Shown here piece after piece: positions 31,153 to 53,520 of a stretch of DNA of 64,000 nucleotides. The notes under the pieces were generated by a model. That model was not told the origin of the DNA. It searched no databases and worked only from the letters and a program-made list of their open reading frames with translations. The DNA comes from a virus. The translations under genes and the position numbers were made by a program. How positions within the stretch are numbered: position 1 is the first letter of the stretch; each line of letters begins with the position of its first letter. The stretch lies in the UHGV virus genome UHGV-1493261, one strand, 5' to 3'.

Positions 31153-32718
31153 TTACTTGTACAGACCTGTCACGTCAATAGACTTGTGCTGGCGATTGTA
31201 CTCAGCAGTGTAGTCATCCAACACCAGGTATTCACAGCAGCGGATTTTGCTTGAACCAAAATCATCGGTGACCGACACGATGTCACGCGGGTTCAGCTTA
31301 CAGCGAACGACACGCTGTCCCACAGAACCGAAACACTCCTTCAGGTAGGCCAGGGAGCAAACGTGCAAACCGTATGAACACAGGTCAGAGTTGTTGTCGT
31401 TCACGAATGAGCGAGCCATCCGCACGATAGTGCCTGGGGCGTTGCTGATCGTGTTGCTGTGCTTGTCCATGTAGTTGCCGCGCACCGATTTGTAGAGGAT
31501 GATGTCACCATCGTCGTCAATTTCGATGTCAGAGTACGCCATGAACTCATAGATGCGCCCGGACTGAACCAGAGAAGCTGACGGGTTCTGGAACATTTTG
31601 TCCATAAACTTCGCCATGCGGTCCAGATTGTGGAAGTCACCCTTCAGCATCAGCGCCAGTACACGCTTGGCGATGGATGTGCCTGTGATGTCATGACCGG
31701 ACCAGCGGACACGGTTGTCAGACACGTCTACCAGACCAGCAGCGTACTTCGCGATGGCTTCACGAGGTCGCATCAGCGAGTAGGCCAGCTTCACGTCTTT
31801 GTCTTTGATCGCCTGTACGATGCGGTCGTAGGCCGGGTGTGAAGTGGTGATCGTTTCCGGCTTACCGTCAATCGCGATAACAACGCTGTCAGGCAGAATC
31901 AGGATCTGGTGTTCGTTCAGGAACACGTCCAGGTCTTTCGCACCGAAGTCCTGCTTGGTCTTCTTGTCATCAGCCACTTCTTCAACGTCTTTGACAGCGA
32001 CGGTGAATTCTACAGAAGACAGAGCCAGACGCAGGGTGCGACCGAGGATGCCATCAAAGTAACCAACACGGCGACGGGCATCCAAGGATCCACGGATAGG
32101 ATAGGTTTCCCCGTCAACCACAACGCTGATTTCAACGTTACTCGGAACTTTGTCCGCACCTTCTGACAGTGCCACAGAAATTTCTGCCATCTCGCCGATA
32201 GCTTCAACATCGAAAGCGCGACTATCACCTTCCACAGGAGTCAATTCAGACTTTTCAAAGAAAGCCCCTTTGAAATTGCCGTCGTTAGTGAGACACAGAT
32301 ACTTGTTGTGGTTCGGCAGATATGCCCCAACATACCATTCTGTGCCATCTTTGTCTTTGGCCGTGCCGCCCGGTTGGACCTCGAATACTTCCTGCTCTTC
32401 CGGCTTGATAGGAGAGATCACAGTTACCTTGTTTTTCTCCTCGGTAATCCGGACCAACAGGGCACGGGCGATCGTCTTGGCTGACACACCGTACACCTTG
32501 GCCAAGAATGCATTGCTGACATTACCTGCCGCCGAATCCCTTTGGATATTGGCGATCTGATCTGTTGTCAGGGATTTCAGCGAAGTAGGGTCAACACCGA
32601 GTTCCGTGTCGGAAACACGTTGTACAGTCGAGCGGGGTATGCCCAACAGAGTAGCAATTGCGCTCTGGCTTTTGCCTTCCTTCAAATACTTCAGGATCTT
32701 TTCGTCAATCTTGTTCAT
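31153..32718 (-). CDS. rIIB: RIIB protein
   Basis: C-terminal half collinear with T4 rIIB (DDDGDIILYKSVRGNYMDKHSNTISNAPGTIVRMARSFVNDNNSDLCSYGLHVCSLAY vs TEDGYFYAWKVVRSNYFDCHSNTFDNSPGKVVKMPRTRVNDDDTQTCSRGLHVCSKSY). Start set at internal MNKIDEK, which carries an N-terminal HTH as in T4. Confidence 0.85.
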   Translation of the reverse strand: MNKIDEKILKYLKEGKSQSAIATLLGIPRSTVQRVSDTELGVDPTSLKSLTTDQIANIQRDSAAGNVSNAFLAKVYGVSAKTIARALLVRITEEKNKVTVISPIKPEEQEVFEVQPGGTAKDKDGTEWYVGAYLPNHNKYLCLTNDGNFKGAFFEKSELTPVEGDSRAFDVEAIGEMAEISVALSEGADKVPSNVEISVVVDGETYPIRGSLDARRRVGYFDGILGRTLRLALSSVEFTVAVKDVEEVADDKKTKQDFGAKDLDVFLNEHQILILPDSVVIAIDGKPETITTSHPAYDRIVQAIKDKDVKLAYSLMRPREAIAKYAAGLVDVSDNRVRWSGHDITGTSIAKRVLALMLKGDFHNLDRMAKFMDKMFQNPSASLVQSGRIYEFMAYSDIEIDDDGDIILYKSVRGNYMDKHSNTISNAPGTIVRMARSFVNDNNSDLCSYGLHVCSLAYLKECFGSVGQRVVRCKLNPRDIVSVTDDFGSSKIRCCEYLVLDDYTAEYNRQHKSIDVTGLYK

Positions 32719-32749
32719 CTTGTAGTTCCCACGTTGGTTAACAGGACTA

Positions 32750-35506
32750 TTATGCCCTGATAATGGAATTTGAAATAACGTCCAAGTAATCCGAAGAATT
32801 TTCAATCGGGTTCAGGGCGCTTGGTTTGTAATTCTCTTTCAAGAACCGGACAACACGATGACGTTCTACGGTCATGCGGTTCGCCTTTTTCGCGTTCCGT
32901 GTTGGCGTCTTCAGTAAATCAAACGGTACGAATCCGTGAATCCTCAGAACTTCCGATGCGCGACTGAAGATTTGCAACATACGTTGTTCCGCGCGGAACA
33001 CCCTTTCATCCCGCTCATTGGTATACAGATTCAGATTCAGAGTGCTGATCGTATCCTGGAAATGTTTGAAGCGGCGAACCTCATGAAGAGAAACATTACG
33101 CTTCGACATCGCCTGATAATGGCGGATAGTTTGTTCGTCCAAGATATCGTCAACATAATCCAGCATTTGGTTATACCGATTAACCAGCTGATTATAACGC
33201 CCGTCTTCCCCTTCACCGAACGCCTGTTTTACCAGATGACACCCGTATTTCAGGCGATTAGAACCAAGATGAAGTCTCTGATGAGATTTCAGCAACTGTA
33301 TCGCGTTGTGGCGTTCCAGCATCGGCCTGGCATTCTCCAACATGATCTTCAGGATTTCATCGATCGGGATGAAGACCTCTGGGAACTTCTTCATCATTGG
33401 CACGGATTTACGGCGAGCCAAGAATATTCTGTCGTGAATGTTGAGCATGTCGCTGATATACACTGGCTTGCCTTCATCGTCGACACTGACTGCGTGCTCA
33501 TACAGAGATTTGCGAATACCCCGCGCCGCAGCTGTGGTCAACGTTCTGTCCATCACCTGATGGATACACTCATAGCCAGACACCTCAATATAGACGATGC
33601 GCTCGCCCTTGTTGATGATATCTGAGATCTGGTCGCCCGTCAGTTCTTCATACTGTTTTATGTCGAAGTTTCTGGACGTGAACGGAAACAGACCAGGGTC
33701 TTTGGTGACCGGAGGCGTGACATACGTCAGTTCGTTCATGAACTTAACTTCAGCAGGCTCCAGCACCGCACTCAGCCAATCGACGAACTTGTCGGCGAAG
33801 CACAGATAATCAACCGTCGTTTCTTCTTTACCAATCCAAGTTTCAAAGAAATCATAGAGAGCCTGAGAATTCTTGAACGCAGGGTTGTCCTTAGATTGGT
33901 TGCGCTTGGTGACATAGGATGTGTTCGGCTTGGCCACGATGACTATCGTCCCTGTATCTTTCAGCTGCTTGATCTTCAGGTTACGAGCACGAACACTATC
34001 TTCGATCACCACAGTAACATGCTGGCCGCGATCAATCCACTTCTGGATTTCTGAAATGGTCAGGGTACTGGACTCACCCCAGTCATAGAAGATCTCCATA
34101 GAGAACGGCGATGACAGCTCATTGAACGGCGCGGTATGGTCATAATCGCGATCAATCTCAACAGGCAGCGGGTAACGGTAATATGAATCGTGGAAGCGCT
34201 TGTCAGCCGGGTATTCCTTTTCAACCATCTTGCGGAACCCACTGCCGAACATTTCACTCAGTTTTACCTTCTCCATATACAGGGCAAGAGGACCGCGCTT
34301 ACACGCCAGCTCCAGGTCACGCATCTTTTCTGTCAAGATTGCATTGGCGGTGCCCTTAAACTCCTCAGAGAGCGTCTCACGCGTGAATTCGTCATACGAC
34401 AGGTCTTCACGCGACGGTGGTACGTTCAGCGAGCCAAGTTCAAAGAATGTATAAGACGACGGGAACTTACTCATGATAGAGGAAGTGTCTGGGTCGAGCT
34501 GATTCAGGTCAATCGGGTACGACACGCCACCCATTACAGCATAATGGATGTTCCCCTGGCCTTTCGGCTGGATGTACGTGTTGTTGACCTTGAAATCATA
34601 ACTGATATCTTCCCAGCTGAAGCGGTATGAAGCGTTCTCAACAATTGGACGTTGTTCAGGGCGCATAACACGACCAAGGCGAACCAGTTCATCGGAGAAT
34701 GCAGAGAAACGAGCGTTCTTCACCGGGATCTTCACCGTCATGCCGTTGAACTCATCGGTGTCTTCCGGCTTAGGATCACGGGTTTCAAGATCTTTGGTGA
34801 TCAGATCAACAGTCGGGATGCGCTTGGCATTCAGGTACATCAGGAAGCGATGGAGTTTACCGTCCATGCGGCTTTCCACAGTGAACGAATCCGATACCGC
34901 AAATGGTGATTTGGAGCCAAGACCGAATGCCCCAATCTGATCATCATCTTCTTCCTTCGTACTGTGGAAGAGGGTGGTATACAATCCAGGCGTACGAATG
35001 ATCTCGCCGTCTTCACGACGGAACACCAAAGACCCATTGTAGAACCCTGGAATGCCGATGACTCCGGCCGAATCGGGGATCTCATCTTCCTTGACCACCA
35101 TGTTTCCTTCCAGCAGCACCTCATCTTCCTGTGCTGGGATAGGCTCGCCAATGATCTTCTCAAGTGGCAGACCGATGCCGTAATCACGTATTTCCAGCCA
35201 TGGTTCAAAGTCATCAGGTAGATGCACAACAACCTGCTTACCCTTCGGTGCAAGGTATTTGCTATGGCGGGCAGGAGGCGGAGTGAGAGGCGCGTAGTGG
35301 GACGCCATCACACGGTGCATACGATCACGCATGCCATGGGAGTCGATGGCGTTACAGACGGTTTCGCGCAGGGCTGCAGCCTCTTTGTAACGATACAATG
35401 ATGAGAACAGAGTCTCAAACATCTTATCGTTCATCTTCACGTTGAACGCCTGCCCCTGAATGGAAGACGACGAGCGGATAAAGTGCTCGGACTTGCGCAT
35501 TTTCAT
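32750..35506 (-). CDS. rIIA: RIIA protein
   Basis: 918 aa. Matches T4 rIIA: [28 protein letters not shown] vs [49 protein letters not shown] vs [21 protein letters not shown]. Confidence 0.88.
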   Translation of the reverse strand: [918 protein letters not shown]

Positions 35507-37117: not shown

Positions 37118-37155
37118 AAAAAGGGGATAGAGCAATAATACCCTATCCCCTTTTA
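37118..37155 (-). terminator. Intrinsic terminator (bidirectional shape)
   Basis: AAAAGGGGATAG-(13 nt loop)-CTATCCCCTTTT. Confidence 0.55.
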
Positions 37156-37166
37156 TTGAAGAACGA

Positions 37167-37580
37167 TTAGACTTCAGATTCTACTTTGCCGCCTCGTAGA
37201 TCCCGAACTGGTTTACCGTCCGGTGCCATCACATAAATGGTGTTGATTGTCTCAAACCAAGACAGCTGGTCAACACCCTCGGTGTATGGGGTCACCGGAA
37301 CAGAAGTCTTGACCTCTTTGCCTTTCGTGTTCGGATGTTCAACCACATCCAAGAACGCACATTTCCCGCTCGGAAGGATCACACCATCAGTAAACAGCAC
37401 GATCTTCTTGCGAGGGTTGCTGGCCTCACCCAGGCACACCACCAGATGATGGATCATCTCGGGGCGGGTAATCAACATGTCGTCTTTGATAATCCCTTGC
37501 TTGATAGCAGAGATCACCACTTCATCCAACAGAGCCTGCTGTTGGTCCAGTGTCAGGGATTCAGTGAGTTTCACGCTCAT
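37167..37580 (-). CDS. Hypothetical protein
   Basis: 137-aa ORF. Confidence 0.5.
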   Translation of the reverse strand: MSVKLTESLTLDQQQALLDEVVISAIKQGIIKDDMLITRPEMIHHLVVCLGEASNPRKKIVLFTDGVILPSGKCAFLDVVEHPNTKGKEVKTSVPVTPYTEGVDQLSWFETINTIYVMAPDGKPVRDLRGGKVESEV

Positions 37581-37584
37581 GACA

Positions 37585-38154
37585 TCAGCCTTTGAAGTTA
37601 ATCGGTTTCTGAATACCAGCGTCGAACGCGGCCTGGGTACGGGTATCGCTCACCACCTGGCAGGTCTTGTCAAGGTCGATGCGCGGGTAGCCGAACATGC
37701 CAGCAATCAACGAACCAGGGAACTGAGCCAGCTTGGTTTCGTATATTGTGCAGATATCCAGCTTCTTGGTCTGGCTGATGCGGAATTCATCACGCCCAGA
37801 ACTGATCACCACCTGGATCTCTTTGTACAGGCTGGAATCGAACTGAATATTCTGCTCCTGGATCCACTGCATGACGGCCTTGGAACCATCAGCGCCATAA
37901 CGCCCTTCGAACGTGCCTTTGATCACTTCCTTCAGGCCGTCTTTATACATGTCAGGAATCTGCGCCGTCTCTTGAACTTTGAGCGTGTAGTTGCTCAGGT
38001 AGTTCTCGGAGTCTTTGTTGAACTTCTTGACCTGCTGCTCAGTGCGGTTGAAGTCGTTGAAGTAGCTGATGACTGTACTGATGCCGAGAATCACTATACC
38101 CAGCAAAGCCAAACCAACTATCCAACCTGTTGCGATACCCTTAGATTGAGACAT
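37585..38154 (-). CDS. LemA-family membrane protein
   Basis: 189 aa. N-terminal TM helix; C-terminal YETKLAQFPGSLIAGMFGY resembles the LemA signature Y-N-x-x-I-x-x-FP-x-x-I-x-AGMFGF. Confidence 0.55.
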   Translation of the reverse strand: MSQSKGIATGWIVGLALLGIVILGISTVISYFNDFNRTEQQVKKFNKDSENYLSNYTLKVQETAQIPDMYKDGLKEVIKGTFEGRYGADGSKAVMQWIQEQNIQFDSSLYKEIQVVISSGRDEFRISQTKKLDICTIYETKLAQFPGSLIAGMFGYPRIDLDKTCQVVSDTRTQAAFDAGIQKPINFKG

Positions 38155-38172
38155 TCTTACTTCCTCTTTTGA

Positions 38173-39288
38173 TTAAAAATTAAACGGATAACGACGACGG
38201 CCACCATTGTACTCCATTCGCTGTAATATGAAAATTGCGGTGAACGGTAGACAGCCCAGCAGAACAACAATCACAACTTCCCAGGTCTTGAGTTCCCGCC
38301 ACTTCAGGTACTCCATTTCCTTCATCTCAACGCGGTTGTAGCCTTTGGTGATGTTAGCGACAACATCAGCCATGACACCGACACCCATGTCGTGGCCTGT
38401 GAGAGCCATACCATTGCGAGAATGGAGTTCACGGTTATGCATACCATCAGCGAACGAAGTGCTCTTACCCCAGTTGATCTTCATGTCTTTGTTGATGTCG
38501 GTCACGACGATAACGTCGTTCTTTTTACCACCATCCCAAGCATAGACCAAGCCCTGGAAGTATTCAACTGGCTGGCCGGAAGTCACAACCCAGACGATGT
38601 TCACCTGCTTGGCTGCGCCCAGCTTCTTCAGGACATCATTCAGATAGTCGTTCCAGTATGTGGTCGGTAACGCCAGACCAGACACATTCAGTACACGAGT
38701 GACGCGATAGTAGTCATAGACTTCGGGATACTTCGGAATCTTGTCTTTGAAGCGCTCAGCAAACTGCTGGTCTGAACGAGAGAACAGAGAGTCTTTGTTG
38801 CCCAGCACATAATTCATATATGAATGTTCACGTGCCGCAGGTTCCCCGATTTTAACTTGTGCCCAGCGCGGCGGTTGACCAAGACCACGACGATCAATAC
38901 GATCAATCGTCAGATTACCAACAGTCGTCAACACATCCCAGTCCACGTCATACGAATGCTCATAGCATGTGCTGCAATGGCGGGTGCGGGTACATGACTT
39001 GCTGCTACCGGAACCGGAACATGATGTGGTGTAGTAGCAGTTGCATTCATATGAATGCTCACAACTCACCTTATTCCGCTCCTTTGCAGTGACGTACCCG
39101 TTCAGGATCTCAACATCCCCAGAACTGCCAAGGGAGAACGCAGCATAAGTCCCCGCCTGAATCAGACAGGATAGCACCACTACAATCGCGGTCGCTATCA
39201 GAGTCTCTTTCGGCTCATGGGTCTTGCGGTGGTAGGTCACAAACAGGATAGCCAGTACCAATGGCACACCAAACAGGAGGTAGATCAT
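38173..39288 (-). CDS. Membrane protein with Cys-rich extracytoplasmic segment (possible LemA partner)
   Basis: 371 aa. N-terminal TM, C-terminal TM pair, Cys cluster CEHSYECNCYYTTSCSGSGSSKSCTRTRHCSTC. Confidence 0.45.
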   Translation of the reverse strand: MIYLLFGVPLVLAILFVTYHRKTHEPKETLIATAIVVVLSCLIQAGTYAAFSLGSSGDVEILNGYVTAKERNKVSCEHSYECNCYYTTSCSGSGSSKSCTRTRHCSTCYEHSYDVDWDVLTTVGNLTIDRIDRRGLGQPPRWAQVKIGEPAAREHSYMNYVLGNKDSLFSRSDQQFAERFKDKIPKYPEVYDYYRVTRVLNVSGLALPTTYWNDYLNDVLKKLGAAKQVNIVWVVTSGQPVEYFQGLVYAWDGGKKNDVIVVTDINKDMKINWGKSTSFADGMHNRELHSRNGMALTGHDMGVGVMADVVANITKGYNRVEMKEMEYLKWRELKTWEVVIVVLLGCLPFTAIFILQRMEYNGGRRRYPFNF

Positions 39289-39503
39289 TTGGATTCACCG
39301 ACGAGCTGCGCCTTGGTCATCCCAAGGAGTTGATCTTTATGCTCAGGATTGGCGCCGTTCTTTAACAACAAATCCCAACGCTCTTCATGGTACTGTGGGT
39401 CCAGTGCTTCATCAAATGTGATGTGGTGGCGGAACATAATAGTTGCCACTGAATGGACGCAGTGAGCGATTGCGCGCTTCATTGTTCGGGTATTCTTGAT
39501 CAT
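39285..39503 (-). CDS. Hypothetical protein
   Basis: 72-aa ORF overlapping the stop of the upstream gene. Confidence 0.45.
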   Translation of the reverse strand: MIKNTRTMKRAIAHCVHSVATIMFRHHITFDEALDPQYHEERWDLLLKNGANPEHKDQLLGMTKAQLVGESK

Positions 39504-39606
39504 TTGGATTCTCCCATGACGATAACGGAAGCACCAAAAGCCGCTTCCATGTTGAGTAGAGACATATCTTCAATTCGTTGCATTGCCATGATGTATATTC
39601 TTGCAA

Positions 39607-39648
39607 AAAGAAAGGGGAACGGGCTAATAATAACCCATTCCCCTTTAT
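39607..39648 (-). terminator. Intrinsic terminator
   Basis: Minus strand GGGGAATGGG-(loop)-CCCGTTCCCC followed by TTTCTTTTT. Confidence 0.5.
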
Positions 39649-39671: not shown

Positions 39672-39839
39672 TTACTTTTTCTTCAGCTCTTCCAGTTTGG
39701 CTTCGATTTGTTCTAGGATATCTTTACCCTTCTGAACAATCACTTCACCATCTTGCGCGTGTTTACGGAAGACCAAAGCACCAGCGATGAAGCCGACAAC
39801 CGCGCCAGGAAGCGCATAAACCAGCAGATCTTGTAACAT
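39672..39839 (-). CDS. Small TM protein (55 aa)
   Basis: Not in ORF track. GAGAGGA RBS before ATG; MLQDLLVYALPGAVVGFIAGALVFRKHAQDGEVIVQKGKDILEQIEAKLEELKKK; terminator directly downstream. Confidence 0.45.
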   Translation of the reverse strand: MLQDLLVYALPGAVVGFIAGALVFRKHAQDGEVIVQKGKDILEQIEAKLEELKKK

Positions 39840-39875
39840 GATAATATCCTCTCTTTATAGGCGAGGATATTTATA

Positions 39876-41111
39876 TCAGCGTTTCAAGAGTGCCATGAGG
39901 TTGACGCTGCTGGACTTCGGCTTGTCCTCAACCTTGCGCACAGGCATCTTCAGGTTCGTACATACCTCGGATGGTTCCCAGCGCGTACCCTTTTGCAGGT
40001 GCCAGATATGCAGAGGAACACCAGTCTCAAAGAACACAGGCATCTTCCACTTCTGGACGCCTGGAACGTGCCCTGCAGGAGCCTTTTCACATAACAGGGT
40101 ATCTGGCAGCCAGAGCGAACGGGCTTCCCAGAGCGCTGCGCAGGAGTATTCAGGCCAGACGCGTTCCATGTAGTCTATCTCATCCCAGGTACGCTCTGCG
40201 TCCCACCCGATGTAACGGGTATTCTTCAGTCGGAAGAATTTCTTCAGCCAACAAGCACCGGAGGTTTCAAAGTTCAGGCGGTTGATGAACGTCAGGTGCC
40301 CGAACTCAGCCACACAATCCTGGAACGCCTGCTCAAGGTCGGCCTCAAGGATGTCACACTCTTCATCCGTGATAGGACAACCGTTGATCTTTTTCTTCCC
40401 GTGCTTGGTCACCCAATCGTCACGGTTGGACAAGAACGCCGCACCGTTGCGGTTGGACTCGCTTCCATCACGATCACGCAGCATGAAGCCAGGGACGTCA
40501 ATGGTGTATTCGTTCCCGAAGACCATGTTCAGGGCTTCCAGGAAGTTCCAGGCGCTCAGGCGACCGAAGTATTTCCAGGACATCGCCGTGTCCCACAGCT
40601 GGGTGAATTGTTCTGTCTTATCGATGCACACCAACATCCCACGGAAAGCGTCATATTGAGTACGACCAGCCAGCCAGTCAATATAGGACTGAACACACGG
40701 AATCATCTTGGACTTGCGGTAGCGACAGTCAGTATCGAATCGCATGCGTTCAAAGTTCAGGTTGTACCAGTCTGAGAAGCGCTGCATCTCTTCCTTAGAC
40801 TGAGGCGGCACAGGGAACTCACTGTAGATAGTCCACGGCCCGACGGCGTTATAGCAACAACCCCACAGGAATGCCATCCAGATCTTGCGCTCGACTTTCT
40901 GTTCGAGGCTGATGCCTTCAGTGACTTCGATCGCATAGTCCATCAGACGCATCTGCTGGTTGTGCTCTTCTGTGTAGGACAGCGCCTCCACCCAAGCCTT
41001 GAGCAGGTACATGCGATTCTCAGGTTTACGGTAGTCAACAGCTAGGTCAATCGGGTACTTCCATTCAGTAGGAGGCGTATAGCCCGTCGGCATTTTAGAT
41101 AGATGCGTCAT
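39876..41111 (-). CDS. Hypothetical protein (candidate DNA-modification enzyme by neighbourhood)
   Basis: 411-aa ORF adjacent to a P-loop kinase; no motif recognised. Confidence 0.5.
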   Translation of the reverse strand: MTHLSKMPTGYTPPTEWKYPIDLAVDYRKPENRMYLLKAWVEALSYTEEHNQQMRLMDYAIEVTEGISLEQKVERKIWMAFLWGCCYNAVGPWTIYSEFPVPPQSKEEMQRFSDWYNLNFERMRFDTDCRYRKSKMIPCVQSYIDWLAGRTQYDAFRGMLVCIDKTEQFTQLWDTAMSWKYFGRLSAWNFLEALNMVFGNEYTIDVPGFMLRDRDGSESNRNGAAFLSNRDDWVTKHGKKKINGCPITDEECDILEADLEQAFQDCVAEFGHLTFINRLNFETSGACWLKKFFRLKNTRYIGWDAERTWDEIDYMERVWPEYSCAALWEARSLWLPDTLLCEKAPAGHVPGVQKWKMPVFFETGVPLHIWHLQKGTRWEPSEVCTNLKMPVRKVEDKPKSSSVNLMALLKR

Positions 41112-41647: not shown

Positions 41648-42565
41648 TCACCCCTTCTTCATCAGGTCAAGGAGAGAGCGCGACGCTGCCTTCGTTGCTT
41701 CTGGCTGGGCGCTCGCCTTGGTTTTAGTTTTGGATGCCTTCTGTGGCTTCTCAGGCACTCTGTGCGCCAAAGGATCCTGGCCGCCGATTTCACGAGTCAT
41801 CGGATTGGTTTCACAGTAGGCGTAAAAGTCTTTGGTGTCCATGTTAACTTCACGCAGTTCGGACCGTATCTGATGACAAATCGCATTACCCACAACCCAC
41901 AGCGGGGCGTCGTATGGGAGCACCGCCAACTCGGACTGCTGTTTGGTCGTGAACTCCTGGGTGTTGGTCTCTGGCGCTTTATACAGGATATCCTGTCCGC
42001 TGTAATCATCAACAGCCACAGTGAAGCCCAGCGCCAGCATTTCGGCCTTCGACTTCTCAAACTCCTTGGAGTAAGATTCGTTGCGCGACCAGCCGGAGTT
42101 CCCTGCTTCTTTACCAGAGCGACCACGGATACGAGCATCGTACTGATAGCGGTCGGGGTACGCAAAGTACAGCAGCGCCAATGATTCAATCGGATAGTTC
42201 TTGAACATCCATTCAGGACGCCATTTGTCCGATAGCATGAGGGGTTCTCCATCACACACCAGAGTGTAACCCTGAACCAACCAGCACTTGATTAGATCAC
42301 GAGCAATATCGCCTGAGCCTGTAGCAGCATGGATTGCATCCATTGAAGTCCAGGAAGCCAGGCCGGATTTGTTAGACACGGTGTACTGTCCAACGAAGAT
42401 TAACTTCAGCTCTCCGAACTTCAAGCCAAACGGGCGAGTCTTGTCACCAACGGTGTAGGTCAGTTCGGTAGGCTCCAGCTTAGTGCGCAGCCATTCGATG
42501 AACTGGACAACACGGGTGCCCTTACCCGTACCGCTGGTTCCTTTCACTACGATAATTTTTGCCAT
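41648..42565 (-). CDS. P-loop kinase (candidate 5-hydroxymethyl-dU DNA kinase)
   Basis: 305 aa. Walker A GTSGTGKGT at the N-terminus; Lys-rich C-terminal tail. Confidence 0.5.
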   Translation of the reverse strand: MAKIIVVKGTSGTGKGTRVVQFIEWLRTKLEPTELTYTVGDKTRPFGLKFGELKLIFVGQYTVSNKSGLASWTSMDAIHAATGSGDIARDLIKCWLVQGYTLVCDGEPLMLSDKWRPEWMFKNYPIESLALLYFAYPDRYQYDARIRGRSGKEAGNSGWSRNESYSKEFEKSKAEMLALGFTVAVDDYSGQDILYKAPETNTQEFTTKQQSELAVLPYDAPLWVVGNAICHQIRSELREVNMDTKDFYAYCETNPMTREIGGQDPLAHRVPEKPQKASKTKTKASAQPEATKAASRSLLDLMKKG

Positions 42566-52709: not shown

Positions 52710-52798
52710 TGGCGGAAGGTGAAGGATTCGAACCTTCGGGGGCTAAAAGCCCCACTCGATTAGCAGTCGAGTCCCTTAAACCTCTCGGGCAACCTTCC
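52710..52798 (-). tRNA. tRNA-Ser (anticodon GCT)
   Basis: Manual cloverleaf: acceptor GGAAGGT/ACCTTCC, anticodon loop CTGCTAA, long variable arm GGGGCTTTTAGCCCC, T-loop GGTTCGAATCC, encoded CCA. Confidence 0.7.
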
Positions 52799-53016
52799 AA
52801 TTTGGACGGGCTTCGCACCCGATTGAGCATTTGATCTGCCGTAGCCCAACTCCCCGCGCTTCACAGCGCCGATTGGTTAACTGGTGACCAGTGCCTTCTG
52901 GTTAGATCCCCTGGAACTTTACAGGCTTCGCGCCCAACCATTTCTGGAAGTTGAGGCATCGTTTCCGATGTGGAGTCCCCTCATTTTACACAGCTGGCTG
53001 CAACGCTTACCGTGTT

Positions 53017-53100
53017 TGGTGTGAGTGGATGGATTCGAACCACCGCGCTGTTACGGGGAGATTTACAGTCTCCTGCATTCGACCGCTCTGCCACACTCAC
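53017..53100 (-). tRNA. tRNA-Tyr (anticodon GTA)
   Basis: Acceptor GTGAGTG/CACTCAC, anticodon stem GGAGA/TCTCC with loop CTGTAAA, 12-nt variable arm, T-arm GGTGG-TTCGAAT-CCATC, encoded CCA. Confidence 0.65.
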
Positions 53101-53216
53101 ATTTGGTGGGTGTTACTATCGTCGTCTTCGGATTCCGTTCGGCTATTGGACGTCGCTTCAAGAGCTTGTCGGTCGCGTACTTCTTGCCTATTCACTTTCG
53201 TTCACACCCATAATTC

Positions 53217-53291
53217 TGGCGGTGCCTCAAGGACTCGAACCTTGCTATCACGGATTAACAGTCCGCCGCTTCACCATTTAGCTAAAGCACC
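53217..53291 (-). tRNA. tRNA-Asn (anticodon GTT)
   Basis: Acceptor GGTGCTT/AGGCACC (one G-U), anticodon loop CTGTTAA, T-arm CAAGG-TTCGAGT-CCTTG, discriminator G, CCA. Confidence 0.7.
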
Positions 53292-53299
53292 TGAATATT

Positions 53300-53375
53300 T
53301 GGCATGCCCTCCAGGACTCGAACCTGGGTTGTACGGTTTTGGAGACCGACCTCATAGCCGCCAGATCAAGGGCAC
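53300..53375 (-). tRNA. tRNA-Trp (anticodon CCA)
   Basis: 76 nt with canonical numbering: T-arm CCAGG-TTCGAGT-CCTGG, anticodon loop CTCCAAA, acceptor GTGCCCT/AGGGCAT, CCA. Confidence 0.7.
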
Positions 53376-53443
53376 ACACCTTACAACGAACTATACTGTA
53401 TAAAGGTTATTGAAACAAACGTTTATTTTATTCAACCATAATA

Positions 53444-53520
53444 TGGTGATCCTGATTGGGTTTGAACCAATGACCAATGAATTATGAGTTCACTGCTCTA
53501 ACCGACTGAGCTACAGGACC
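53444..53520 (-). tRNA. tRNA with CAT anticodon (elongator Met or Ile-lysidine type)
   Basis: Acceptor GGTCCTG/CAGGATC, canonical D-arm TAGCTCAGTCGGTTAGAGC, anticodon loop CTCATAA, T-arm ATTGG-TTCAAAC-CCAAT, CCA. Anticodon stem lacks initiator features. Confidence 0.7.

Follow-up and report, generated by a model that had tools for sequence, protein, structure and literature searches.

A conserved pair of phage membrane-protein genes with a probable relationship to the bacterial LemA-TPM module

In bacteria, a gene of the LemA family (PF04011; structure 2ETD, Thermotoga maritima TM0961) and a downstream gene of the TPM family (PF04536) form a two-gene module in which the genes are adjacent, co-directional and often overlapping. 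The LemA component is a single-pass protein of N-in/C-out orientation, with a helical bundle that ends in the motif FPxxxxAxxFG[FY], and the TPM component is a membrane-anchored protein with an extracytoplasmic TPM-fold domain. The C-terminal domain of LemA is predicted to be extracytoplasmic, and one member of the family, MamQ, is required for magnetosome membrane formation (PMC3905215). LemA-like bundles, which have been described with a long first helix, are proposed to be membrane-associated scaffolds (bioRxiv 10.64898/2026.07.15.738315), and TPM proteins are proposed to assist the assembly of membrane-linked complexes, with a phosphatase role judged unlikely (bioRxiv 10.1101/2025.01.14.632903). 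Envelope stress in a Flavobacterium mutant is accompanied by joint induction of lemA and a TPM gene (PMC13236525); a survey of the Psp system mentions neither LemA nor TPM. Here we describe a pair of genes for membrane proteins at positions 37585-39288 of a 64,000-nucleotide (nt) stretch of the virus genome UHGV-1493261 (hereafter, the window). This pair shares the organization and the two protein types outlined above and is very probably a version of the LemA-TPM module; in the literature, we found no description of such a module in phages, of the TPM nature of its larger protein or of its conservation.

The DNA of this region matches that of Escherichia, Enterobacter and Salmonella phages of the Ackermannviridae (Aglimvirinae) at 95-97% identity and that of the Dickeya phage LIMEstone1 at about 90%; the window phage is ViI-like. 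The interval is filled exactly by two co-directional open reading frames (ORFs) on the minus strand that encode proteins of 371 and 189 amino acids (aa). A first-pass annotation of the window had recognized both of these as a LemA-like protein with an N-terminal transmembrane (TM) segment and a C-terminal motif, and a 371-aa membrane protein with a dense cysteine cluster. All these features are present: the 189-aa protein has a single hydrophobic segment near its N-terminus (aa 4-35), with FPGSLIAGMFGY further on at aa 144-155, and the 371-aa protein (hereafter, the partner) contains three hydrophobic segments and seven cysteines within aa 76-108. The order of the genes given in that annotation, with the LemA-like gene first, is the reverse of the actual one: because the pair is on the minus strand, the partner gene is upstream and the LemA-like gene downstream in transcription. 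The short spacer between the two genes contains a GAGGAA ribosome-binding site that precedes the start codon of the LemA-like gene (Table 1). Both products are full-length members of phage protein families (E-values of 6e-86 for the LemA-like protein and 1e-163 for the partner), and both have hundreds of homologues, 445 in the case of the partner, so that the pair consists of genuine genes rather than chance ORFs.

The homology of the 189-aa protein to LemA, as judged by profile methods, is real but remote. When a profile built from 37 homologues was compared with 177,635 PDB sequences, the best match was 2ETD, named 'lemA protein' (E 4.5e-4), with a nearly full-length alignment (query 32-160 against chain 10-155) in which the C-terminal motif corresponds to FPGVIFAKMFGF. 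The HHalign comparison of the phage profile with 25 bona fide PF04011 proteins yielded a probability of 96.8% (E 2.8e-10) over 142 columns that take in the TM helix and the FP...FG motif, and the comparison with 2ETD alone gave 71.9% (E 3.4e-5). Several homologues from metagenome-assembled genomes (MAGs) match both the phage and the bacterial LemA hidden Markov models (HMMs), and PF04011 is the only Pfam family that recurs below the threshold among the homologues (8 of 37, best E 0.0016). The AlphaFold2 (AF2) model, with a predicted local distance difference test score (pLDDT) of 81, consists of helices only, the first of them very long (helices 7-63, 68-82, 87-100 and 107-143). The LemA architecture, namely, a short N-terminus, one TM segment, a helical bundle of ~150 aa and the C-terminal FPxxxxAxxFG[FY], is recapitulated in full, and structure searches were too noisy to add weight. 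Accordingly, the LemA assignment made in the first-pass annotation stands by profile methods only: the profile-profile and PDB profile searches support it, but the direct search with PF04011 stays below the Pfam cut-off. 'LemA' occurs now and then as a name for the small protein in the output of automatic pipelines.

The hydrophobic segments of the partner (aa 1-21, 27-54 and 333-358) correspond to TM1, TM2 and a C-terminal TM helix. In the AF2 model (pLDDT 88, predicted template modelling score 0.76), the two N-terminal TM helices are followed by a beta-hairpin-rich domain, an alpha/beta domain and the C-terminal TM helix. The beta domain conserves C76, H78, C82, C90, C99, C108 and H111, along with the co-varying pair C84/C105 discussed below, and has no detectable relative. 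The alpha/beta domain has, in the model, a TPM fold, and its motif W-x-GGKKNDV aligns with the WGIGQKEKNNGVL motif of a bacterial TPM protein. Scans of both window proteins against Pfam, NCBIfam and PADLOC produced nothing above the thresholds, and the partner profile had no match among the PDB sequences. A TPM profile search, which had been suggested for this protein, thus gave a divided result, with no Pfam or otherwise significant profile match, but with TPM_phosphatase as the only Pfam family that recurs below the threshold among the partner homologues (7 of 40, best E 1.8e-4). The HHalign match with the Thermotoga TPM protein (probability 30%, E 5.5e-4, 46 columns) is not significant either, and because the profile-profile comparison lacks significance, we call the partner a TPM-fold protein rather than a member of PF04536; this assignment rests on the fold and the recurrent weak Pfam matches.

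Compared with the bacterial TPM protein, the phage partner has two N-terminal TM helices in place of the signal peptide, contains the additional Cys/His-rich beta domain of ~100 aa and has no Gly-rich C-terminal tail, and both phage proteins, in contrast to the bacterial ones, fall below the Pfam thresholds. The TPM accessory proteins of photosystem II, AtTLP18.3 and Psb32, show only 11-16% sequence identity to the phage protein, in which the TPM domain is located between the Cys-rich domain and the C-terminal TM helix. The TPM-like domain could, in principle, be a phosphatase that is aided by a Cys/His metal site and acts on an envelope precursor or a periplasmic nucleotide, with the LemA-like protein as a membrane adaptor. 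Such a periplasmic enzyme appears improbable given that sequence and structure analysis argues against phosphatase activity of TPM (bioRxiv 10.1101/2025.01.14.632903) and that the similarity to characterised TPM proteins is too low for the transfer of an active site.

The first-pass annotation had described LemA pairs as a bacterial membrane module, and for LemA-TPM this was confirmed directly in genome neighbourhoods. In Thermotoga (where the lemA gene is the one encoding the 2ETD protein itself), Neobacillus, Carboxydocella and Brevibacillus, lemA is directly followed by a PF04536 gene, often with an overlap; in Thermincola, the next gene is TPM-like but has no Pfam record, and no such gene follows lemA in Fervidobacterium, so that the adjacency holds in 4-5 of the 6 bacterial genomes looked up. 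Because the bacterial neighbourhoods consist of lemA and then a TPM gene, the phage pair can be considered a variant of this module. The Thermincola pair (L015 3893-5573) is followed by genes for NfeD and the flotillin FloA.

Charge distribution and conserved cysteines indicate the probable orientation of both proteins. Across the LemA-like family, the TM helix is preceded by a net charge of +1.2 and followed by one of -1.2, the same pattern as in bacterial LemA. In the partner, the loop between TM1 and TM2 (+0.6) and the C-terminal tail (+1.2) are net positive, a bias that fits an N-out, loop-in, ectodomain-out and C-in arrangement. Residues C135 and C165 of the LemA-like protein co-vary perfectly, with 23 sequences that have both and 14 that have neither, and so do C84 and C105 of the partner (both present in 31, both absent in 9), the ectodomain of which contains five further conserved cysteines. 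Such perfect covariation is the pattern expected of periplasmic disulfides, which the sequence statistics suggest for both proteins. Together, the charge bias and the co-varying cysteines point to a periplasmic location of both ectodomains. The membrane topology prediction that had been proposed as a check yields, on this basis, an N-in/C-out LemA-like protein and a three-pass partner with both domains predicted to be periplasmic.

The two proteins appear rather likely to form a heteromeric, periplasm-facing complex in the inner membrane. In other lineages, the ORFs of the pair overlap (by 4 nt in RaK2, 14 nt in Desertfox and 29 nt in DU_PP_V) or abut (with a 1-nt gap in an Acinetobacter phage). 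In a 553-aa metagenomic ORF, P0250 (JGI metagenome contig, L013:1012-2673), the partner (aa 1 to ~365) runs in frame into the LemA-like protein (~371-552), and the order matches that of the unfused genes; the ORF may be a Rosetta-stone sign that the proteins interact physically, or else an artefact of assembly, and the fusion is topologically compatible with a periplasmic location of both domains. A complex of this kind is the most economical interpretation because of the charge bias, the covariation of cysteines, the topology of the fusion, the strict adjacency of the genes and the frequent overlap of their start and stop codons.

Although the identity of the pair as a version of the LemA-TPM module is highly probable, we give only about an even chance to the proposal as a whole, in which this phage-adapted, strongly diverged version of the bacterial two-gene membrane module forms a complex that acts on the host envelope. 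Several observations weigh against it. The PF04011 match of the LemA-like protein (13.7 bits, E 0.055, aa 125-158 aligned) is below the cut-off of 26.2 bits, the Pfam TPM family (PF04536) does not match the window partner at all, and the HHalign match between the partner and six TPM proteins encoded next to LemA in bacteria (probability 2%, E 0.023) is not significant. The gene order in phages is reversed relative to bacteria, with the TPM-like gene first; the bacterial order is retained in Tenacibaculum phage PTm5 (L042 2839-4559) and in one MAG contig (L020 356-1995). The P0250 fusion comes from a single contig and could be an assembly error, and no convincing sigma-70, T4-late or MotA-type promoter for the transcription unit of the pair was found between the upstream terminator and the first ORF. 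Finally, the analogy carries little mechanistic weight because the bacterial module itself is without an established function.

The pair is widespread among phages. In a tblastn search of 50,697 phage records, the partner was detected in 486 and the LemA-like protein in 498 (about 1%), with near-identical counts for each host genus; given this frequency and the existence of PHROG families, the view of the first-pass annotation that a LemA pair is unexpected in a phage does not hold. The carriers include Ackermannviridae, T5-like Demerecviridae (DU_PP_V), T4-like phages of Aeromonas, phiW-14 and Sinorhizobium phages; phages of 104-130 kb, namely, ICP1, Vibrio phage phi 3, Providencia phage PSTCR5, Aeromonas phage AhSzq-1 and Acinetobacter phages; and many jumbo phages (RaK2, GAP32/PBECO4, the Ea35-70 group, XacN1, Atu_ph07 and PaBG). 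Seven lineages, represented by the window phage, ICP1, DU_PP_V, RaK2, Desertfox, an Acinetobacter phage and phiAS5, were set against each other in an all-against-all BLASTP. The two genes lie side by side in every one of them, and these loci share no other genes; adjacency was also observed in phiW-14. The comparison revealed no third conserved neighbour, whether the ~200-aa upstream gene of ICP1, RaK2, Desertfox and the Acinetobacter phage or the 72-aa and 137-aa ORFs of the window. In RaK2 (L005 1550-3426), a TelA-like 'toxic anion resistance' gene and a T5p085-like metallopeptidase gene directly precede the pair, and the neighbours in RaK2 and Thermincola share a membrane-stress or microdomain theme. 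Prevotella phage Lak-B4 (L041 2836-3375) encodes a LemA-like protein, and the partner HMM found no partner within 3 kb of it.

A profile search of 1.84 billion representative proteins identified 1,516 members, one of which is the P0250 fusion. Among 185,579 species genomes, there are only 21 loci, mostly on MAG contigs, with the LemA-like gene adjacent in 15 of the 19 that could be evaluated, and the locus in Achromobacter, with a YqaJ-recombinase and RecA as neighbours, is not clearly cellular. A recent origin of the pair from the host was considered and rejected because these loci are few and mostly MAG-borne and because the Achromobacter locus is not clearly cellular.

The predicted position of the ectodomains, periplasmic and anchored in the inner membrane, where incoming phage DNA crosses, would suit superinfection exclusion or immunity, whereby the complex would block genome entry or cell-wall penetration of later phages, similarly to T4 Imm and Sp or T5 Llp. 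Moreover, in several lineages, the pair is located among non-structural genes (nucleotide metabolism, tRNA and small hypothetical genes). The known exclusion proteins, however, are small, fast-evolving and lineage-specific, whereas between phages of Vibrio, Acinetobacter, Enterobacteria, Delftia and Aeromonas this pair is still 30-50% identical, with many polar residues invariant, and it descends from a cellular module of a housekeeping type. The PADLOC defence models yielded only a weak match of the LemA-like protein to LeoBC (aa 9-112, E 4e-4, 17.6 bits) and nothing for the partner. Exclusion, therefore, seems unlikely to be the role of this pair.

The first-pass annotation also placed the pair next to rIIA and rIIB and suggested a functional link to the rII locus. 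The location is loosely correct in that the rII genes lie 2.1 kb downstream of the pair, but five other ORFs and a strong terminator intervene. In the six other lineages, no rII genes are annotated within 3.5 kb of the pair, and because the seven lineages share the pair alone, the rII neighbourhood is lineage-specific and the suggested link is not supported. The proximity of rII in the window phage, together with the endolysin gene found three to four genes upstream of the pair in DU_PP_V and phiW-14, could nonetheless be taken as pointing to the timing of lysis, with the two proteins functioning as antiholin-like or spanin-like periplasmic sensors that control holin firing or the breach of the envelope. 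Indeed, the single-pass topology, the helical periplasmic domain and the cysteines predicted to form disulfides resemble those of i-spanins and T4 RI. This possibility is a poor one: the helical protein is homologous to LemA rather than to spanins or RI, the partner is a three-TM TPM protein rather than an outer-membrane lipoprotein or a holin, and proximity to endolysin or rII genes is absent in the other lineages examined. The architecture of the pair also differs from that of two-component spanins, given that the partner begins with MIYLLFGVPLVLAILFVTYHRK and has no Cys in the first 40 residues and hence no lipobox.

The labels of PHROG 1383 and 2087 ('virion structural protein' and unknown, respectively) miss the relationship to LemA and TPM. 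PHROG 1383 is labelled 'virion structural protein' in the category 'head and packaging', and many RefSeq records carry the same label, which would make the LemA-like protein a component of the virion. The structural label is not supported, and a virion role is very improbable. The virion proteome of LIMEstone1, in which 39 proteins were identified by electrospray ionization tandem mass spectrometry, includes neither ORF195, the LIMEstone1 homologue of the LemA-like protein (96% identical), nor ORF194 (PMC3296691). The two proteins are also absent from the virion bands of phiSboM-AG3, an analysis that was limited to the six strongest gel bands. The original GenBank records say hypothetical, the gene is outside the structural gene modules, and the TM anchor, the predicted periplasmic disulfides, the polytopic membrane partner and the bacterial LemA ancestry all argue in the same direction. 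The label could not be followed back to a source in the LIMEstone1 and AG3 studies or in that of the Agrican357 group, which used crude lysates and has gene numbers that could not be mapped.

Returning to the interpretation of the pair as a phage version of the LemA-TPM module, the following mechanism can be envisaged. The upstream gene would yield a three-pass inner-membrane protein, with a large periplasmic loop made up of the phage-specific Cys/His-rich beta domain followed by the TPM-fold domain, and the downstream gene would yield a single-pass N-in/C-out protein, with the LemA-type helical bundle also in the periplasm. Both proteins would be made together from one transcript and most likely would join in one inner-membrane complex. 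By analogy with the bacterial proteins, this complex might act on the host cell envelope during infection rather than on DNA or the virion, and its most likely role would be to keep in place or rearrange a conserved structure of the host inner membrane or periplasm, such that the membrane stays functional until lysis. Given the high conservation of the pair across phages of very different hosts, a conserved target in the host envelope seems preferable to rival phages as the object of its action, and for this reason a scaffold or maintenance function in the envelope is favoured among the specific roles. We put it forward tentatively, as a possibility suggested by analogy. The basis of the analogy is MamQ, the only LemA relative with a clear phenotype, which resembles the phage protein in being a single-pass, LemA-type protein with the helical domain on the non-cytoplasmic side and is needed for the reshaping of the inner membrane (PMC3905215). 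MamQ differs in that it acts within the magnetosome gene set and without a TPM partner, and the link to it rests on the literature. Overall, the evidence favours a general role directed at the envelope or periplasm and does not discriminate between exclusion, lysis timing and envelope stress, the three roles suggested at first.

The pair belongs to a five-ORF unit that consists, in the direction of transcription, of a 29-aa remnant ORF, a 72-aa ORF, the partner gene, the LemA-like gene and a 137-aa ORF, with terminator hairpins on both sides (free energy of -27.4 kcal/mol and z of -6.3 for the upstream one, -27.6 kcal/mol and -6.75 for the downstream one). In LIMEstone1, the site equivalent to the downstream hairpin is annotated as a terminator, and the unit is annotated alike. 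The two terminators are nearly alike, with 16-bp stems (CAATAAA(A)GGGGA..GGGT(T)ATTATT..CCCCTTT), and their loops hold the sequence TATTAT, which the LIMEstone1 annotators marked as a possible -10 element; on this account, both bracketing hairpins may also serve as promoters. The 72-aa and 137-aa ORFs are lineage-specific and stand outside the conserved pair; for the 72-aa ORF, no homologue was found beside the pair in the six other lineages. The 29-aa ORF (39500-39588, minus strand) overlaps the start of the 72-aa ORF, and at the same site the close relatives RPN242, vB_CECAV_050 and LIMEstone1 have one or two longer small ORFs, which makes the site a local indel hot spot. Further upstream, the window encodes an amino-acid:DNA transferase and a P-loop nucleotide kinase; both belong to the thymidine-hypermodification set typical of ViI-like phages, a part of known biology that is unrelated to the pair. 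The listed rIIB ORF starts at TTG and overlaps the 3' end of rIIA by 56 nt; the true start is probably near 32718 because the PHROG match begins only at residue 30.

Table 1. Positions of the gene pair, its predicted domains and other features of the window
Feature	Position	Strand	Basis or remark
371-aa inner-membrane protein (partner), upstream gene	38173..39288	-	ORF; PHROG 2087
189-aa LemA-like protein, downstream gene	37585..38154	-	ORF; PHROG 1383
18-nt spacer between the two genes, with Shine-Dalgarno-like GAGGAA	38155..38172	-	Sequence read directly
Cys/His-rich beta-hairpin domain of partner (model), aa 57-158	38815..39120	-	
TPM-fold alpha/beta domain of partner (model), about aa 199-330; motif KQVNIV...W-x-GGKKNDV	38299..38694	-	
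Intrinsic terminator, upstream edge of unit; closes preceding late unit	39611..39646	-	16-bp stem and T run
Intrinsic terminator, downstream edge of unit, after 137-aa ORF	37119..37154	-	Hairpin followed by UUUUU
72-aa soluble ORF, PHROG 16350, co-transcribed; stop overlaps partner start (ATGA)	39285..39503	-	
137-aa soluble ORF, PHROG 4236, co-transcribed; directly after LemA-like gene	37167..37580	-	
55-aa single-TM ORF, PHROG 3879, with its own terminator; just upstream of the unit	39672-39839	-	
T4-type late promoter consensus TATAAATA	39868-39875	-	29 nt upstream of 55-aa ORF
Amino-acid:DNA transferase	39876..41111	-	PF18724, E 4.5e-60
P-loop nucleotide kinase	41648..42565	-	
Five tRNA genes (Ser-GCT, Tyr-GTA, Asn-GTT, Trp-CCA, Met-CAT)	52710-53520	-	
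rIIA	32750..35506		
rIIB	31153..~32720	-	ORF as listed mechanically 31153-32805

Altogether, the pair is best regarded as a new phage-specific form of a known, functionally obscure bacterial module; this is an advance in annotation and a testable lead rather than a surprise of principle. It also corrects the propagated mis-annotation as 'virion structural protein'. A more far-reaching idea, which we regard as rather unlikely, is that the pair is an 'envelope take-over' module widespread in large lytic phages, in which the Cys/His-rich domain, a phage invention mounted on a captured LemA-TPM scaffold, would dock onto a universally conserved machine of Gram-negative hosts. The candidates for such docking, as speculative as the idea itself, would be the respiratory, Tol-Pal, Sec/YidC or peptidoglycan-synthesis complexes of the inner membrane and periplasm. 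If this were the case, docking would rewire the machine such that the cell remains energised, or closed to competitors and to abortive-infection systems that target the membrane, through a long latent period, and the phage proteins would become the first handle on the function of the bacterial LemA-TPM module. Both LemA and TPM proteins occur very commonly in bacteria and are obscure in function, and the phage module is streamlined and strongly conserved in about 490 phages. Among the carriers are tractable ones, namely, ICP1, ViI/CBA120-type phages, LIMEstone, T5-like phages and the jumbo phage RaK2, in none of which the module has been recognised. Deletion in phages and pull-down experiments thus offer a practical route to the function of the LemA-TPM module, and in the phages used for therapy and biocontrol, membrane integrity, exclusion or lysis may be affected by a conserved phage complex that faces the periplasm.

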